A stretch of DNA of 41,124 nt from a virus (taxonomy: Duplodnaviria > Heunggongvirae > Uroviricota > Caudoviricetes), in the IMG/VR virus record IMGVR_UViG_2802429226_000008, positions 1 through 41,124 of that record; one strand, written 5' to 3'. A program made the position numbers and the translations under genes. The notes beneath the pieces are model-generated. The model did not search any database. It was not told the DNA's origin and saw nothing but the letters and a program-made list of their open reading frames with translations. Of this stretch, positions 6,108 through 41,124 are shown piece after piece. The number at the start of each line of letters is the position of its first letter. The stretch's first letter is position 1.

Positions 6108-6300
6108 AAAAAGGCCATTTCCATTCAGGGTCTGATGGAAATACTTCAGCCTGTTCCAAAGCACGGCGTAAAGAGAACACAACTCCAGCCATAATCTGAT
6201 GTTTCCCATTGGTCCAGCTATCGCCGCTCTGATCTACAGGGGCGGCTATGTCGTATGACCAAACGACTTCACAGTTATTGTTTAAAATCTGGACTTTCAT
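6025..6300 (-). CDS. hypothetical small protein, first gene of leftward early operon
   Basis: ATG at 6300 with AGGTG SD; lies downstream of PL-like promoter. Confidence 0.45.
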   Translation of the reverse strand: MKVQILNNNCEVVWSYDIAAPVDQSGDSWTNGKHQIMAGVVFSLRRALEQAEVFPSDPEWKWPFSICPNSESTFQKIGQKVALEEHQPTVS

Positions 6301-6426
6301 TTCATACACCTGCTTTAACATGAGTGCCTAGTGGCACAACATGACTCAACGAATCATCCTGGACTTCATATGCCCCAGGCGGCTACTTCGTGGGCGTCCT
6401 GCCTGTTCGTTGTTTCGCTTGGGTAC

Positions 6427-8398: not shown

Positions 8399-9340
8399 AT
8401 GAGCACTAAATTAACCGGCTATGTATGGGATGGTTGCGCTGCATCAGGCATGAAATTATCCAGCGTGGCAATTATGGCCCGCCTGGCTGATTTCAGTAAT
8501 GACGAAGGTGTGTGCTGGCCATCAATTGAAACCATTGCCCGCCAGATTGGCGCGGGGATGAGTACCGTCAGAACGGCTATCGCACGGCTGGAAGCAGAAG
8601 GCTGGTTAACGCGTAAGGCGCGTCGCCAGGGTAACCGCAATGCGTCGAATGTTTATCAGCTTAACGTTGCGAAGCTTCAGGCAGCGGCATTTTCTCAACT
8701 GTCAGATTCTGACCCGTCAAAATCTGACGCATCAAAATCTGACCCGTCAAAATTTGATGCGTCGAAATCTGGCAAAAAAGCGGGTTTTCACCCGTCAGAA
8801 TCTGGCGGGGATCCGTCAGTAAAATCAAAACATGATCCGTCAGATAAAAAAACTTCTCGTCCGGACGCTTCGCAACCGGACACGCAGACGGCTGAACAGG
8901 AGTTTTTAACTCGCCATCCTGATGCGGTTGTATTCAGCCCTAAAAAGCGCCAGTGGGGAACGCAGGATGATTTGACCTGCGCACAGTGGCTCTGGAAAAA
9001 AATCATCGCCCTGTACGAGCAGGCCGCCGAATGTGACGGCGAGGTGGTTCGTCCCAAAGAACCGAACTGGACAGCCTGGGCAAACGAAATTCGCCTGATG
9101 TGTGTGCAGGATGGTCGTACTCACAAACAAATCTGCGAGATGTACAGCCGCGTCAGCCGCGATCCGTTCTGGTGCCGTAACGTGCTCAGCCCGTCGAAGC
9201 TGCGGGAAAAATGGGATGAGCTTTCCCTGCGCTTATCGCCGTCCGTCAGCACGTACACAGAAAAACGCGAAGACCCGTACTTCAAAGCCAGTTACGACAA
9301 CGTGGACTACAGCCAGATCCCGGCAGGATTCAGGGGGTGA
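8399..9340 (+). CDS. replication initiation protein (lambda O-like, N-terminal wHTH), contains iteron array
   Basis: 313 aa; N-terminal HTH region; internal DPSKSDASKSDPSKFDASKSG repeat reflecting DNA iterons. Confidence 0.8.
   Translation: MSTKLTGYVWDGCAASGMKLSSVAIMARLADFSNDEGVCWPSIETIARQIGAGMSTVRTAIARLEAEGWLTRKARRQGNRNASNVYQLNVAKLQAAAFSQLSDSDPSKSDASKSDPSKFDASKSGKKAGFHPSESGGDPSVKSKHDPSDKKTSRPDASQPDTQTAEQEFLTRHPDAVVFSPKKRQWGTQDDLTCAQWLWKKIIALYEQAAECDGEVVRPKEPNWTAWANEIRLMCVQDGRTHKQICEMYSRVSRDPFWCRNVLSPSKLREKWDELSLRLSPSVSTYTEKREDPYFKASYDNVDYSQIPAGFRG
8702..8806. repeat. iteron array (putative replication origin), 15-bp periodic direct repeats TCAAAATCTGAC, followed by an AT-rich tract
   Basis: copies at 8702, 8717, 8732, 8747, 8762 and 8795; A-rich segment 8820..8850. 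Confidence 0.7.
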
Positions 9341-9342
9341 TC

Positions 9343-9831
9343 ATGAGTCTTTTGAATGAAGTTCAGAAATTCATTGAAGCCCATCCGGGGTGTACTTCCG
9401 GAGACATTGCGGATGCTTTTGCAGGTTACTCACGGCAGCGCGTTCTGCAGTCAGCAAGCAAGTTACGTCAGAGTGGGCGTGTGGCTCACCGTTGTGAAGG
9501 AGATACACGCAGACATTTCCCACGCCTGACTGAGAGAGCGCAGGAGCCGGAACCACAACCAGTTCGTGAAACCAGACCTGTGCGCAATTTCTATGTCGGC
9601 ACTAACGATCCCCGGGTGATTTTGTGCCTGACCCGCCAGGCGGAAGAATTGGAGTCCAGGGGCTTATACCGTCGTGCTGCAACGGTGTGGATGGCGGCAT
9701 TCCGTGAAAGCCACTCCCAGCCAGAACGAAACAATTTTCTGGCGCGTCGTGAGCAGTGTTTACGGAAAAGCAGCAAGCGCGCTGTATCGGGTGATGAGTG
9801 GTATCTGTCAGGGAATTACGTGGGGGCTTAA
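9343..9831 (+). CDS. hypothetical phage protein (possible winged-helix N-terminus)
   Basis: ATG at 9343 (track start 9337 is GTG); TAATG overlap with next gene. Confidence 0.55.
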   Translation: MSLLNEVQKFIEAHPGCTSGDIADAFAGYSRQRVLQSASKLRQSGRVAHRCEGDTRRHFPRLTERAQEPEPQPVRETRPVRNFYVGTNDPRVILCLTRQAEELESRGLYRRAATVWMAAFRESHSQPERNNFLARREQCLRKSSKRAVSGDEWYLSGNYVGA

Positions 9832-10484
9832 TGAGTAATAAATATTGCCAGGAGCTGGTGGAACTGCGGAACAAACCAGCCCATGAACTGAAGGAAGTGG
9901 GTGATCAGTGGCGCACGCCGGACAACATTTTCTGGGGAATTAACACCCTGTTTGGCCCGTTTGTTCTGGATCTGTTTACTGACGGTGATAACGCCAAATG
10001 TGCTGCGTATTACACGGCGGAAGACAACGCGCTGGCGCATGACTGGTCAGAACGTCTTGCGGAGCTTAAAGGGGCTGCCTTTGGTAATCCCCCATACAGC
10101 CGCGCCAGTCAGCATGAGGGGCAATACATCACCGGCATGCGTTACATCATGAAACATGCCAGTGCCATGCGTGATAAGGGCGGGCGCTATGTTTTCTTGA
10201 TCAAAGCTGCCACCAGCGAAGTGTGGTGGCCGGAAGATGCAGATCATATTGCTTTTATTCGCGGGCGTATTGGTTTTGAACTGCCTGTCTGGTTTATCCC
10301 GAAAGACGAGAAGCAGGTACCGACAGGAGCTTTTTTCGCTGGTGCTATTGCTGTTTTTGACAAGACCTGGAAGGGACCGGCAATCAGCTACATCGGGCGC
10401 GATGAACTTGAGGCATGTGGTGAGGCGTTTCTGGCGCAGGTTCGCCAGCAGGCGGAAAAACTGGTCAGGGAGATGGCGGCATGA
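9831..10484 (+). CDS. phage DNA N6-adenine methyltransferase (orphan Dam-like)
   Basis: NPPY motif (GNPPYS); ATG at 9831 overlapping upstream stop. Confidence 0.82.
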   Translation: MSNKYCQELVELRNKPAHELKEVGDQWRTPDNIFWGINTLFGPFVLDLFTDGDNAKCAAYYTAEDNALAHDWSERLAELKGAAFGNPPYSRASQHEGQYITGMRYIMKHASAMRDKGGRYVFLIKAATSEVWWPEDADHIAFIRGRIGFELPVWFIPKDEKQVPTGAFFAGAIAVFDKTWKGPAISYIGRDELEACGEAFLAQVRQQAEKLVREMAA

Positions 10485-10807
10485 CGATGTTAACTCAATG
10501 CCAGCAGCAGGTGCTGGATATGCTGATTTCTTACCAAAAAGAACGTGGCTTCCCGCCAACCAATCAGGAGGTGGCAACCATGCTGGGATACCGTTCAGTG
10601 AATGCAGCGGTAGAACATCTTCGCGCACTGGAGAAAAAAGGCGTCATCACGATAAAGCGTGGCGTGGCCCGGGGCATCACGCTTCATACCGTGGTGAAGG
10701 ACGACGACAGCGAGGCGGTCGGGATTATCCGCTCACTGCTTGCCGGTGAGGAAAACGCCAGGCTGCGTGCAGCCCACTGGTTACATGAGAGGGGCCTGAA
10801 AGTATGA
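10481..10807 (+). CDS. LexA-N-terminal-like DNA-binding protein
   Basis: 108 aa; ATGA overlap; GGAG SD; winged-helix-like N-terminus. Confidence 0.55.
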   Translation: MTMLTQCQQQVLDMLISYQKERGFPPTNQEVATMLGYRSVNAAVEHLRALEKKGVITIKRGVARGITLHTVVKDDDSEAVGIIRSLLAGEENARLRAAHWLHERGLKV

Positions 10808-13773: not shown

Positions 13774-14372
13774 GTGATTTTCGCCGAAGATGGCGACATG
13801 ATGCTTGCATTTTTCAAAAAATATGGATAAGATTTTCTCAACGATGGGCTTTGTATGTCTGCCGTTGAGAATCTTCAAGAACCCGCCATCAAGTAGGTAT
13901 TTTGTTATCCAAATATCAGTTCTGAATAGTCTTAGTCGCTTCTTGATAAACATAAAAGAATAAGTACTTGCTTTGAATGGCCGCCTTTTAGACAGGGCAG
14001 AGAGTACGATTGGTTGAAAAAAGCATAGTTCTTGGCGGTAGGTTTTATTTTAGTCTCTCATCTATGTATCTAGGGAAGTATGTGATTACCTTCAGGAATT
14101 ATATCCTGTGTTTCATATGATTACATGGGAGCAAGGGACGCCAACTTTATAACAATTCTTTTGCCCAGCCACTATATATAGATAAAAAAAATCCTCATCA
14201 TCCCGTATATTGTTGTTGATTTCTTTTTGCTATATATGTTGTGTTTTTTATGCCTTTATTGCATATGTGATTAATGTGCTTGTTGTTATATTCAATACGA
14301 TGCCAAGGGATTTGGGACGTGTATATCCAATAAATTGGCAGATTTTTGTTAATTACTTGGGTAGCGTATTGT

Positions 14373-14813
14373 ATGACTAAAAATGCACAGCAGGTTCTTG
14401 AAGACTCTGCCCAACAGATTTTTCCCGATTATTTTCCTGCAGATGTTCCTCCAAAAGAGTCCTTGGATGCTGAAGGGGTTTTTTATCGCTTAGCCAGAAA
14501 TAATCCACCTGGGAAAGCTTGTTTTTTAAACATGAAAGAAGAAAACCCAAAAAGAATGAAAAAGTTCCAAGGGTTAAAATTGAAATGCTGCTATGGTGTT
14601 TCTATGTTCATGGACGAAACATCACTGGTAAATGTATTTAATAAATTTCCTGAAGGAATAGGTGAAAGGTTTATTGCTAAAGGCGAGTTGAATCCACAGG
14701 ATGGAAGAATGCTAAAAACAGGAGCTCCTGATTCGACTCATTTTACCATTTGGCTTTGTAAAGATGCTCGAGTTCATGAAAAATTCACCTGTATAAGAGA
14801 GGTGGTTAGATGA
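14373..14813 (+). CDS. hypothetical protein, AT-rich cargo gene A (146 aa)
   Basis: ATG at 14373 (track start 14346 is TTG); low-GC codon usage; ATGA overlap with gene B. Confidence 0.6.
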   Translation: MTKNAQQVLEDSAQQIFPDYFPADVPPKESLDAEGVFYRLARNNPPGKACFLNMKEENPKRMKKFQGLKLKCCYGVSMFMDETSLVNVFNKFPEGIGERFIAKGELNPQDGRMLKTGAPDSTHFTIWLCKDARVHEKFTCIREVVR

Positions 14814-16099
14814 GCAATATTTTTTTGGAAGATAGTGTGTTCGGCACATTATATATGCAAAAAATTTATGAGTTCTTCGAAGAGCCAAAACTTTTCTCTG
14901 TGTCTAATGAAATAAATAGCATGTTTGTTGTCTATTGGATTGGCGACGAAGAAGATTATGATAAATGGATTATCATACCGATTTCAAAAGATAGGTTGGA
15001 GCACTTCGAGCGTAAAAGAATTGATATTAGAAGTGTTTTAGTGTATCAAGAACAAAAGCTTTGCTATCAGTTTAATATTTACTATGAAGATAATCATGTT
15101 GATGAAATAAAAATAAATGTTTCTGAGTTAAATGAGAAGATAAAAATTCCAGAACCTAACTTATATATTAGTAGTGTTCTTCCTGTATTACCTAATGGTA
15201 AAATTGGAAAGGAGGTAGAATTCTCTACGCATGAGATTCATGTGGAGAAAACAGCAACTTCTGTGGAACCCTTGGTTTTAAAAGGCGTCTCGAAGCTTTT
15301 TGAGTGTTTTAATGATTTCTATTCATCAATATTAGCTGCATTTGATGAAAAAGATGTAATGAGTCCAGTATCTGGACGTCCTGGTTCATTTGTTCTTTCA
15401 TTCAAGGCAGATAAAATGCAGCAAATTGAACCATTGCTGAAAAAACTAAATGAGCTGATTCTATCAAGAAAAGATATTATTGGTTTTGTTAAACAGAATA
15501 ATATCGATGTTCAGATGTTATCTGCTTTATTTGAAAGTGTGATAGAGACAAGTTCATGTTTTGAACTAAAAAGTAATGTGACTGATGATATTATTCTTAG
15601 AGTCAGAAAAACTGATGCTGAGTTCTATTCTGGCACATTGATTAAAATGGCTACTCAAGTTGTTAGTAGTTATCAGGTACCGCAGGCTAACCTAATTGAA
15701 CAAGTGTTTAAGATAGTTGAATTAAAATGGCAAGAGAAGCATCTGAACCTGATTAGTACTGGTCTGGATAATCGACATATATTGTATTATATTCATGCGG
15801 CCAAAATACTTGGGTTACTAAATAGTAATGGTTCTGTTTCAGCTCTTGGTCAGCAATTGGTTGAATCTGACTATGATAAGAGACTAAGAATCGCTGCACG
15901 CGGTTTTGAAACAAGTCATTGCGGGTGGGCGTGGATTACCTGGAGTCAGGCTAAAAATCTTTCTGAGCTCGATCCACTTACAGCTGAACGATTTTTGCAA
16001 GATAGATGTATATCTCTCAGCTCCAAAACAATAAAGAGAAGGGCTTCTACTTTAAGGCAGTGGTGTGAAAAATTGCAACCTGCTTATCAGGAGCTCTGA
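14810..16099 (+). CDS. hypothetical protein, AT-rich cargo gene B (429 aa)
   Basis: GAGGTGG SD; long open frame in AT-rich DNA; no recognisable catalytic motif. Confidence 0.7.
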   Translation: MSNIFLEDSVFGTLYMQKIYEFFEEPKLFSVSNEINSMFVVYWIGDEEDYDKWIIIPISKDRLEHFERKRIDIRSVLVYQEQKLCYQFNIYYEDNHVDEIKINVSELNEKIKIPEPNLYISSVLPVLPNGKIGKEVEFSTHEIHVEKTATSVEPLVLKGVSKLFECFNDFYSSILAAFDEKDVMSPVSGRPGSFVLSFKADKMQQIEPLLKKLNELILSRKDIIGFVKQNNIDVQMLSALFESVIETSSCFELKSNVTDDIILRVRKTDAEFYSGTLIKMATQVVSSYQVPQANLIEQVFKIVELKWQEKHLNLISTGLDNRHILYYIHAAKILGLLNSNGSVSALGQQLVESDYDKRLRIAARGFETSHCGWAWITWSQAKNLSELDPLTAERFLQDRCISLSSKTIKRRASTLRQWCEKLQPAYQEL

Positions 16100-38313: not shown

Positions 38314-41124
38314 TTATTTTTTTAGAGATTGCATTCGTTCATTGAATATGTCCAATGTGTCTTGAAATTCAACAAAGCCTCTATCCTTTATAAGGCTTTT
38401 AATTAAGTTAGGAAAATCACTTTCTACACCAGCTGTAATGAAATCTAACTCGCCTAATTTATTCGGGATGTTTTCAGAAACAAATTTGTTAATAACCTCA
38501 AGAAATTGATCAGGCATGGCACATCCGCTTGCGACTAAATGCAAACATTCCATAATATCGCTTACTGTTGCCAGTGGTAGGTTTAAAATATTACTGTTAA
38601 TAAACTTGTCTATAATGTCAACGACCTCAGGAGAGCCAATCCTTTTGATGTTCAATAATAAACTCTTAGTGATGGATCTTTTCCACTTATCATCAAATAA
38701 TTGTATTTTTGTTAACGCTAATGTTAATAGTTCAGTGTTTTTGTATTCGTAATTATGATTCTCTGATAATATGTAAATGTTTCGTAAGATATTGGAGTTA
38801 ATTACATGCTGGTCATAACCATTTAACTCTCCTGTATTGATTTTTATAAGTATTACATCCAGGATTTTTAACATATCATCATGGGATTTTTGATACAAAA
38901 ACTCATTCACAGCTAGAAGATTATGTATGTTTTCATAAATATTTATGTTATTAGTTCTGCCTTCTAACAAAGGAAGCAAACCATTTATTATTTTCTTTAA
39001 CTGGTTTGAACTCCACGGAACACATCCTAATATAATCAATAAATTATTGGTCCATCGATCTATTGAAGTGGTATGAATAAAATTTTTATTTTTCAACCTA
39101 ATCAGGTTGCATATGTTTTCGAGAGAGTTGAGTAAATATTTCTTAATATGGTGAACTTCTCTTTTGTCAAGTTTGCTGGTGCTGATTATTATTTTGTCTT
39201 TTATTACCTTACTTAAAAATTTTTTGAGTTTTTCTGTCTCGCAGTATTTTATTAACATAAATAGATCGATTCTATTAACATAGAATATCTCTTCGCATAG
39301 ATAGTGTTCGAGGCTACTAAGAATATTAAATTCGAAAAATTGTTTAACCTCTTTATATTCTTCAATTAAAATTTCGTTGCCTAAAATGAAATACACATAA
39401 GGGTACAGTTTCGCTCTTGTTTTAAATTCATCATTGGAAAATGCTATTCCACCACTCTTTCTTATTTGTGAGTACCCTAAATTCTTCTTCGATTCAACGT
39501 CAAATCGATAGTAAGCTTTGTATATTTCATTAAATTCAAGCATCTTTACTAATTCTTGTAGCTCACTTTGCACCCCCCGTGGAAAATCAATTATTTTACT
39601 TTTAAACTCAAATGGAGTATGGCTTTCCATTATTGATTTACAATCTTCATCAATGTCCTTACCGTTACAGTGTAAATCCGACTTCAACATCCTGTAAGCA
39701 TAATCAAAATTAGACATGTGAATGGTGGCGAGAATATAGTTTCTCTCATTAAGATGAAGCTTTACTTTCGAAATAAGAATATCGAGAAGTTTGCCATATT
39801 CCTTGTTAATAAGAAGTATTTCAGCATTATCCTTTGAATAAGCGAAAGAAATCTTATTGTATAGCTCAGACTCTAATTCTGAAGAACTAATCACCTCATA
39901 CAGTTTCGAGTCATAACTAACTGTATTTATAAATGCCTTTTCCAAAATAGATGAGAATGTCTTTTTTAAGTGAGTATTTTTACTCAAAATGTCATTAAGG
40001 TATATGCTATTTATTTTCCTGCTATACTCGTCATAATCAGTCGTCAAAATATTATTGTGGGAGGTTAGTTTAACCCCAGACTTATCATAATCAATGGTAC
40101 TATTAGTTAATTTTTTACTGATCTGCTCAGGGAGCAATACTTTGTATTGTGTTAATGCTTTTAGTTTGCTATCAACATATTTATTTATTTTTTTTGTTAC
40201 AATACATTGAATATCATTCTTCAATTTATTTTTATCAAAATCAGACATTCTCAGGTCATCTTCTATTTTTTTTACCTTTGACTCAGTATAGATTAGGGTC
40301 CTCTTTATAAACTCATCTTGGTTTTTAACAAGCTTGAAATCACTGAAAAATTTTGAATAAAGATCATGATAGCTAATGTCAGTATTCATCGGTGTCAACA
40401 AGGATATCCCATGATTTCTTAAGTAAAGAGCCTGGGCTGCATCATGATTTTTCTGGAGCAAATATTTTCTTGGTGTTGCTTTTGATATAGTTGTAACCCA
40501 TGAAACAATCTGTTTTAAATCATAATCACTATAAGAGTATCCTAAAAACACAACAGTGTTTGTTGAGAATATTCCTTTTATAAAATTTTCGATAAGTGGA
40601 AAATTTTGGCTGTACTGTAAGTAATCATCCTCTTTAAAAACAAAATTATTCTGTCGAAAATCCCCATGCATCTTTATAATTTTCTTGTCCAAATGACTTT
40701 GTGCCAGGTCCACGTCAGAACTAACTAAATCATAAGCCAATCCTATGTCTTGTGCAGTTTTTTCAAGCAAACTATCCCAGTTGGTTGTAATTATATAGTG
40801 GGGGTTTAATTCAAATAGCATCTTATGAAAAAGACTTGGTTTCAAATCTCTAATTATTGATTTGACTTTTTTAACATAAGAGTTTTGTCCGTATTGAAGA
40901 AAGTAAAGTTGGGCTATTTTTAAATAATCATTTTCTTCAGACAATCCTAAGTCGTCTTTTAGCTCATTTATTAACTCCCTCCAGGTTGGTATTTTTATTA
41001 ATTCCGTTTCGCTGAATTTAGAAAAACCAGCACCAATAAAAAGAACTAACTTATTATCTTGACTGGCATTCAATATTTCGTTCAAGTCATATTCAGAAAA
41101 AGAAAGTGGATTTAAATTTATCAT
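38314..41124 (-). CDS. SIR2-domain protein (936 aa), candidate NAD+-depleting antiphage defense protein (DSR/ThsA-like N-domain, unknown C-domain)
   Basis: N-terminal GAGFS (31-35), TTNWD (N115), KMHGD (H153), FLGYSYSD motifs; AT-rich codon usage; ATG exactly at window edge. Confidence 0.78.
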   Translation of the reverse strand: MINLNPLSFSEYDLNEILNASQDNKLVLFIGAGFSKFSETELIKIPTWRELINELKDDLGLSEENDYLKIAQLYFLQYGQNSYVKKVKSIIRDLKPSLFHKMLFELNPHYIITTNWDSLLEKTAQDIGLAYDLVSSDVDLAQSHLDKKIIKMHGDFRQNNFVFKEDDYLQYSQNFPLIENFIKGIFSTNTVVFLGYSYSDYDLKQIVSWVTTISKATPRKYLLQKNHDAAQALYLRNHGISLLTPMNTDISYHDLYSKFFSDFKLVKNQDEFIKRTLIYTESKVKKIEDDLRMSDFDKNKLKNDIQCIVTKKINKYVDSKLKALTQYKVLLPEQISKKLTNSTIDYDKSGVKLTSHNNILTTDYDEYSRKINSIYLNDILSKNTHLKKTFSSILEKAFINTVSYDSKLYEVISSSELESELYNKISFAYSKDNAEILLINKEYGKLLDILISKVKLHLNERNYILATIHMSNFDYAYRMLKSDLHCNGKDIDEDCKSIMESHTPFEFKSKIIDFPRGVQSELQELVKMLEFNEIYKAYYRFDVESKKNLGYSQIRKSGGIAFSNDEFKTRAKLYPYVYFILGNEILIEEYKEVKQFFEFNILSSLEHYLCEEIFYVNRIDLFMLIKYCETEKLKKFLSKVIKDKIIISTSKLDKREVHHIKKYLLNSLENICNLIRLKNKNFIHTTSIDRWTNNLLIILGCVPWSSNQLKKIINGLLPLLEGRTNNINIYENIHNLLAVNEFLYQKSHDDMLKILDVILIKINTGELNGYDQHVINSNILRNIYILSENHNYEYKNTELLTLALTKIQLFDDKWKRSITKSLLLNIKRIGSPEVVDIIDKFINSNILNLPLATVSDIMECLHLVASGCAMPDQFLEVINKFVSENIPNKLGELDFITAGVESDFPNLIKSLIKDRGFVEFQDTLDIFNERMQSLKK

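Follow-up and report, generated by a model that had tools for sequence, protein, structure and literature searches.

What accounts for the frequent presence of a second, unrelated Dam-like enzyme in phages of enterobacteria that already possess Dam? The question is raised by a stretch of viral DNA of 41,124 nucleotides (nt), IMG/VR record IMGVR_UViG_2802429226_000008 (hereafter the window), which corresponds to an SfV-like prophage at tRNA-Thr (thrW), adjoining proA. The plus strand of the window encodes, at positions 9831-10484, a phage N6-adenine DNA methyltransferase of the SfV dam type (217 codons, 217 amino acids [aa]). The original prediction for this locus, made from the sequence alone, had recognized an orphan N6-adenine methyltransferase gene of a phage, located in a nin-like region, and had inferred an anti-restriction function for it. 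Family hidden Markov models, catalytic motif, predicted fold and gene context all agree with the first part of that description: the gene is real, intact and correctly recognized, as well as ordinary and very common. Regarding its function, we consider it moderately probable that it encodes an active, orphan DNA N6-adenine methyltransferase that works in the lytic cycle and most probably copies the host GATC mark.

An orphan methyltransferase of the SfV dam type

The predicted protein matches the Pfam family PF05869, 'DNA N-6-adenine-methyltransferase (Dam)', with E = 9.7e-46 and 156 bits against a cut-off of 28.1, spanning positions 3-167 of the 169 in the profile, and no other Pfam family is matched at E <= 0.01. 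It covers the NCBIfam equivalog TIGR01712, 'phage N-6-adenine-methyltransferase', in its entirety (256.5 bits, cut-off 97.05; positions 1-165 of 165), matches PHROG 111 ('DNA methyltransferase') and is matched end to end by the PADLOC model MTase_II for type II or orphan methyltransferases (519 bits). At the nucleotide level, the gene is 97-99% identical to the dam or DNA adenine methylase genes of phages SfV, SfII and mEp460, of Stx2a and Stx2c phages, and of many induced E. coli phages, the PhiR series among them. SfV dam (orf41) and the genes of SfII, mEp460, cdtI and Stx2a_1447/Stx2c, which share 98-99% of their nucleotides and amino acids with the window gene (98.6% for the protein encoded by the annotated dam of cdtI phage), belong to the same prophage type and have identical neighbors, with a yfdN/PerC gene upstream and a LexA-domain gene downstream. 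Matches were found in 2120 of 5426 complete E. coli genomes (~39%), where the gene is named 'phage N-6-adenine-methyltransferase'. The gene is thus already known, with a dam annotation dating from the publication of the SfV genome and a curated NCBI name, and the window gene is another copy of SfV-type dam with no substantive difference. A literature search found no experimental work on the SfV-type enzyme.

In the RefSeq entries for SfV (NC_003444), SfII (NC_021857) and mEp460 (NC_019716), dam has been re-annotated as 'phosphoadenosine phosphosulfate reductase'. The source of this name is probably PHROG 33262, a profile of 495 positions representing a fusion of phosphoadenosine phosphosulfate (PAPS) reductase and Dam. 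Because the window protein matches only positions 283-492 of this profile, the PAPS-reductase name looks like an annotation-transfer error.

The absence of an adjacent restriction endonuclease, on which the orphan status in the original prediction relied, was borne out. No restriction endonuclease was detected by Pfam searches of nine neighboring open reading frames (ORFs), none is listed in the RefSeq annotation of a near-identical prophage (~43 kb), and PADLOC found no endonuclease among four flanking or cargo ORFs, while the methyltransferase protein itself hit methyltransferase models only. The HNH genes of the prophage are a terminase-associated one and a DUF968 gene in the NinG position. 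The enzyme is therefore an orphan, with no cognate endonuclease in its neighborhood or in the element as a whole.

Conservation and predicted fold

The catalytic motif IV of amino-methyltransferases, which the original prediction had correctly recognized in this 217-aa ORF, takes the form NPPY at residues 86-89 (positions 10086-10097, plus strand; codons AAT CCC CCA TAC) and is embedded in the sequence FGNPPYS. A second element, FVLDLF (residues 44-49; positions 9960-9977, plus strand), coincides with predicted strand beta-1 (E44-48 in a high-confidence model) and contains the invariant D47; it probably represents the equivalent of motif I, which binds S-adenosylmethionine (AdoMet). In alignments of 8 and 114 family members the motifs W27-x-T29-P30, L46-D47 and NPPY are all conserved. 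Invariant residues in the 114-sequence alignment are T29, P30, L46, D47, L68, W72, N86, P87, P88, W132, R146 and F149, and W27 and Y89 are near-invariant.

Truncated copies of the gene exist, which could suggest that the locus is a decaying, inactive prophage remnant. In roughly 400 of the 2126 E. coli records with a match, coverage of the gene stays below 80%, and many fragments occur among its relatives. In K-12, yfdM ('putative methyltransferase YfdM', CPS-53; positions 6113-6388 of locus L013, minus strand) is 99% identical to the first 89 residues and breaks off just past NPPY; K-12 yfdM is therefore a dead fragment. The window copy, however, is full length and retains every invariant residue, and the same gene is carried by SfV, SfII, mEp460 and the PhiR series, all of which were isolated as viable phage particles. 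In addition, the ratio of nonsynonymous to synonymous substitution rates (dN/dS) relative to the 88%-identical Salmonella orthologue, the sole usable comparison since dS reaches saturation with the homologues of Yersinia, L012 and Chi, is 0.047 (dN = 0.061, dS = 1.31). The gene is under strong purifying selection, and decay is an extremely improbable description of the window copy.

A structural model computed with AlphaFold on the 114-sequence alignment attained a predicted local distance difference test (pLDDT) value of 93.2 and a predicted template modeling (pTM) score of 0.89. Alignment depth mattered for this outcome, with 28 close homologues yielding a pLDDT of only 58. The model adopts a class I AdoMet-dependent methyltransferase fold of the N6-adenine type. 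Searches of the PDB by sequence and profile returned zero matches, EcoDam and T4 Dam included, and no member of the whole PF05869 family has a solved structure. The best structural matches obtained with Foldseek were to the cap adenosine N6-methyltransferase PCIF1 (E ~1e-3), while METTL3/14 were matched with a probability of 0.04-0.09. The protein is thus predicted to consist of a compact N6-adenine amino-methyltransferase core that is distant from all solved structures and has no separate recognition domain. Alignment and model both delineate three insertions that are specific to the subgroup, namely a hairpin (residues ~91-101), a loop (~150-167) and a C-terminal helix (190-216). The long (~217 aa) subgroup is also represented in Chi-like phages (46% identity) and in further phages infecting Salmonella, Klebsiella, Proteus, Providencia and Aeromonas, hosts that are, as far as is known, all Dam+.

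Characterized relatives and the probable target sequence

The GATC adenine, the target of host Dam, would be the most probable target of the enzyme, which is expected to act as a stand-alone, AdoMet-dependent methyltransferase. The choice of GATC derives from the characterized relatives. HP1 orf13 (250.8 bits) and the nin-region methyltransferase of VT2-Sakai (218 bits) are members of PF05869 and correspond to HP1 Dam and VT-2 Dam. The window protein shares 26%, 31% and 36% identity with HP1 Dam, VT-2 Dam and PamA, which are 31-36% identical among themselves and span the family. The three characterized family members that could be traced are all GATC enzymes, HP1 Dam being reportedly specific for GATC according to the HP1 papers. 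The dam genes of HP1 and VT-2 have been cloned and are described as Dam methyltransferases, and VT-2 Dam is listed with GATC specificity. PamA renders S. aureus DNA sensitive to DpnI in a host without Dam.

These relatives resemble the window protein to different degrees. M.EcoVT2Dam (175 aa) is likewise an orphan PF05869 enzyme whose gene occupies the nin region, flanked by the replication genes and Q. It has 42 residues fewer, however, and neither the hairpin after NPPY nor the 150-167 loop nor the long C-terminal helix is present. M.HP1Dam (173 aa), the founder member of PF05869, shares NPPY and a small size, but it belongs to a P2-like phage of another host and is encoded at the end of the early operon. 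PamA, from the S. aureus prophage mPhi11, is also an orphan prophage gene with NPPY, its 36% identity extending over the core, and its layout (141 aa, NPPY at 64-67, C-terminal Q141) is, feature for feature, that of the phage 80 homologue. Unlike what is proposed here for the window protein, PamA works in the lysogen, in a host without Dam; through its activity, fnbA expression, biofilm formation and abscess size increase, and host virulence is altered. Since an E. coli host already bears the GATC mark, a PamA-like effect on the host is not expected in this case. PamA nonetheless shows that such enzymes can change the virulence of hosts without a GATC mark, a point that would gain importance should phages of this type enter Dam-less hosts.

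Host-type Dam enzymes of the alpha class (E. coli Dam, T4 Dam, DpnM) constitute another family, to which the window protein does not belong: only about 106-113 residues superpose on enzymes of this type, the structural overlap with EcoDam and T4 Dam (106-109 residues) is confined to the core, and the window protein has no separate target-recognition domain. The HP1 literature is said to propose that the GATC specificity shared with host-type Dam arose by convergence.

Several other methyltransferases were considered as relatives and set aside. M.EcoGI/GII and M.EcoGV/M.EcoPA8orf6770P resemble the window gene in being orphan, prophage-borne and annotated as DNA adenine methyltransferases, and they are silent or weakly expressed in lysogens. 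M.EcoGI/GII are, however, beta-class enzymes of ~349 aa with an N-terminal DPPY, a central recognition domain and a C-terminal FxGxG, whereas in the 217-aa translation NPPY follows the L-D motif and no C-terminal FxGxG was seen. Hia5/Hin1523, the non-specific enzymes of Mu-like prophages, carry DPPY and are of the Dam-related alpha type. The Stx-phage 16S rRNA methyltransferase and M.EcoGV are MT-A70 proteins with DPPW instead of NPPY, and the window protein has no PF05063 match. Finally, oomycete DAMTs were not used as eukaryotic members of the family because they carry another domain ('N6-adenineMlase'); PF05869 is mentioned once in the DAMT paper.

Evidence on the nature of the substrate was obtained from natural fusions in a set of 1496 cluster representatives with relationship to the query. 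In three of them (P0298, P0299, P0304) the Dam domain is fused to a C5-cytosine DNA methyltransferase domain, which favors DNA as the substrate. In two others (P0300, P0312) it is fused to a PAPS-reductase-like domain, located on either side of the Dam domain. The fused relatives are 67-75% identical to the query in the Dam domain, with the exception of P0312 (57%).

The same fusions can also be read differently. If they denote the multi-specific protective type of enzyme, as found in Bacillus temperate phages according to a 2025 review, the window enzyme might have a different or relaxed adenine specificity and serve mainly as a broad self-modification shield against many host restriction enzymes. 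An orphan, probably lytic-phase gene would suit such a role, the subgroup insertions are missing from the short GATC-specific members, and prophages of E. coli and Haemophilus are known to encode non-specific adenine methyltransferases, albeit of other families. Against this, all three characterized members of the family are specific for GATC; the known non-specific enzymes (M.EcoGII, and Hia5/Hin1523 with DPPY) belong to families none of which matches the window protein; and in the model the protein is small and devoid of a separate target-recognition domain. A broadly protective enzyme of relaxed or different specificity therefore appears unlikely, and a copy of the GATC mark is the preferred interpretation.

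Several considerations nevertheless count against the proposal of a lytic-cycle GATC enzyme. Identity to the GATC enzymes is only 26-36%, and the hairpin, loop and C-terminal helix insertions are of the kind in which specificity elements often sit. To our knowledge, the abundant SfV/Chi-type subgroup has no characterized member, and the literature search likewise gave none. The GATC content of the prophage, which is mildly under-represented (observed/expected 0.75), is silent on specificity either way, and counts of other 4-bp palindromes in the prophage were equally uninformative. What a second Dam would bring to the phage in a Dam+ host is conjectural, and the timing of expression is something that we infer.

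Gene junctions and the YfdN-like neighbor

The original prediction had pointed to translational coupling with the upstream gene through the sequence TAATG, and this overlap was confirmed: it occupies positions 9829-9833 (plus strand), with base 9831 common to the TAA stop codon of the yfdN-like gene and the ATG of the methyltransferase gene. The exact 58-nt junction between the two genes was found in 1085 E. coli records, and the orthologous Salmonella locus has an identical 1-nt overlap. Homologues of the methyltransferase, which begin with MSNKY or M..Y, support ATG 9831 as its start rather than the upstream GTG 9798. A run of five G (G5, positions 9822-9826, plus strand) lies a few bases 5' of this ATG, in Shine-Dalgarno position, and is likely to be the Shine-Dalgarno element. 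A comparable overlap, ATGA, joins the start of the LexA-domain gene to the TGA stop of the methyltransferase gene at 10481-10484 (plus strand); the original prediction was silent on it. Further stop/start overlaps at 9337/9340 and 10804/10807 extend this arrangement into a five-gene chain joined stop to start.

Junction alignments revealed that, when the G5 run gains one additional G, yfdN and dam become a single ORF of 380-382 aa. Fused proteins of this kind are represented by P0013 and P0125, the latter on 28 contigs, and by loci L014-L017 (at position ~3486). The fused junction occurs in many draft assemblies, yet an exact match was found in only one of 5426 complete E. coli genomes, and the allele may reflect either true slippage or a homopolymer assembly error. 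The fusions were initially considered as Rosetta-stone evidence of a complex between the two proteins and were downgraded on account of their origin in the G5 run and their rarity in complete genomes.

The association with yfdN is relevant for the identity of the substrate. An MT-A70 enzyme of Stx phages bears the annotation of a DNA adenine methyltransferase, but in complex with PNB-2 its substrate is 16S rRNA. By analogy, YfdN might be a partner subunit that directs the window enzyme, the substrate might be RNA, or both. The overlap with yfdN and its conservation in Salmonella, the rare natural fusion alleles and the marginal top match to PCIF1 would all fit this possibility, as would the MT-A70 precedent itself. 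Members of the PF05869 family, however, methylate DNA alone when cloned or expressed in single copy; their fusion partners are DNA C5-methyltransferases and not RNA-binding modules; the fused allele arises at a slippage-prone G run and is nearly absent from complete genomes; the genes that precede the Chi-type and L012 homologues are unrelated; and the window protein, by its NPPY and its failure to match PF05063, is not an MT-A70 protein. An RNA substrate or a YfdN-directed enzyme is therefore highly unlikely. Also unlikely, when the two departures from a Dam mimic are taken together, is an enzyme that either has a new specificity, conferred by the additional hairpin, loop and C-terminal helix, or is steered by YfdN as one half of a two-part methyltransferase.

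Expression context and biological role

The plus-strand gene order around the methyltransferase gene comprises genes for a cro-like protein, a cII-like protein, a replication protein, YfdN, the methyltransferase, a LexA-domain protein, RusA, a KilA-N protein, a DUF968 protein and Q. By its place in this order, the methyltransferase gene lies in the equivalent of the lambda nin region. The run from cro to Q is unbroken and has overlapping stops and starts, and no plus-strand promoter or terminator was predicted between 8399 and 11190. Given this unbroken run without a predicted internal promoter, the gene is most simply placed in the CI-repressed early-right transcript. Its stop/start coupling to the replication gene, yfdN, the LexA-domain gene and rusA points to expression after induction or infection, so that the methyltransferase would be made at that stage and not in the resting lysogen. 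The long subgroup argues in the same direction. Chi-like phages are strictly lytic, and the fact that they carry enzymes of this subgroup favors a role in the lytic cycle.

For lambda, it has been reported that about half of the Dam sites are unmethylated at packaging, which leaves room for a phage-encoded GATC activity. The methyltransferase could hence ensure that fast-replicating phage DNA is fully methylated ahead of packaging. Several benefits may be envisaged. Full methylation might shield the DNA from the DpnII/MboI-type nucleases of a new host; it might allow the phage to avoid MutH and/or escape binding by SeqA in the current host; or it might contribute to the regulation of the phage's own cycle.

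The last of these options can be taken further, with methylation being mainly regulatory for the phage, acting on promoters, replication or packaging, rather than protective. According to the 2025 review, the regulation of viral replication cycles may be the task of many orphan methyltransferases of phages, and phage P1 requires Dam methylation at pac. The gene sits among cII-like, O-like, PerC-like, LexA-domain and Q genes, and the family member PamA rewires gene expression in S. aureus. On the other hand, no methylation-sensitive site has been identified in the phage, and the gene seems dispensable, as SfIV-type relatives have much of the genome in common but no methyltransferase is named in their feature lists. 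The K-12 remnant, moreover, represents a loss without consequence for the host. A mainly regulatory role is accordingly rather improbable, and methylation of GATC during the lytic cycle remains the favored reading.

The anti-restriction function put forward originally is plausible, but its presentation as an established property of orphan phage Dam-like enzymes was overstated. The in vivo function of T4 Dam is still unclear according to the 2025 review, the characterized relatives methylate GATC, and the host is Dam+. Since E. coli already methylates these sites, a GATC enzyme could provide further protection only against nucleases that cut under-methylated GATC. The check that had been suggested, a comparison of the methylomes of the lysogen and a cured strain, is also less informative than supposed. 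Comparable prophage methyltransferases are silent in lysogens; the window gene is likely to be silent as well, and any GATC methylation would be hidden by host Dam. The contrast would thus probably be negative regardless, and failure to detect an additional motif does not refute function.

Neighboring genes and other features of the prophage

The O-like replication protein that heads the chain of overlapping genes is encoded at 8399-9340 (plus strand). It is followed by the YfdN-like protein (9337-9831, plus strand; 164 aa), a member of the PerC family (PF06069, 1e-09) that corresponds to PHROG 1324 ('transcriptional activator') and is annotated as yfdN in E. coli genomes. PerC/Pch proteins are activators of virulence genes in enteropathogenic and enterohemorrhagic E. 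coli. If any gene of the run changes host expression, yfdN is therefore a better candidate than the methyltransferase gene.

Downstream of the methyltransferase gene, positions 10481-10807 (plus strand) encode a 108-aa protein that consists of a LexA DNA-binding domain only (PF01726, 4.6e-19, residues 1-65), with no S24 peptidase domain detected by Pfam. This protein could bind SOS boxes without being cleavable. The gene is present in the E. coli and Shigella phages examined and absent from the orthologous loci of Salmonella, where the order is PerC-Dam-RusA, and of Yersinia, where in phage YeP2 the methyltransferase gene is directly followed by rusA. On this distribution, the LexA-domain gene is an optional module.

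Two further regions of the window encode putative defense functions. Between Q and the holin gene lies a cargo of two genes of low guanine-cytosine content, at 14346-14813 and 14810-16099 (both plus strand), which are joined by a stop-to-start overlap. The first product matches PADLOC PD-T4-10_A (5.6e-10), and the second matches DUF6575 (7.8e-37) and PADLOC PD-T4-10_B (1.1e-07), making the two genes a candidate anti-phage defense pair in a classic moron position. At the very edge of the window, beside the tail-fiber region, starts a 936-aa ORF (38314-41124, minus strand) whose N terminus carries a SIR2 domain resembling the one in Thoeris ThsA (4.4e-29). It is annotated as 'SIR2 family protein' in related genomes and is possibly a defense gene.

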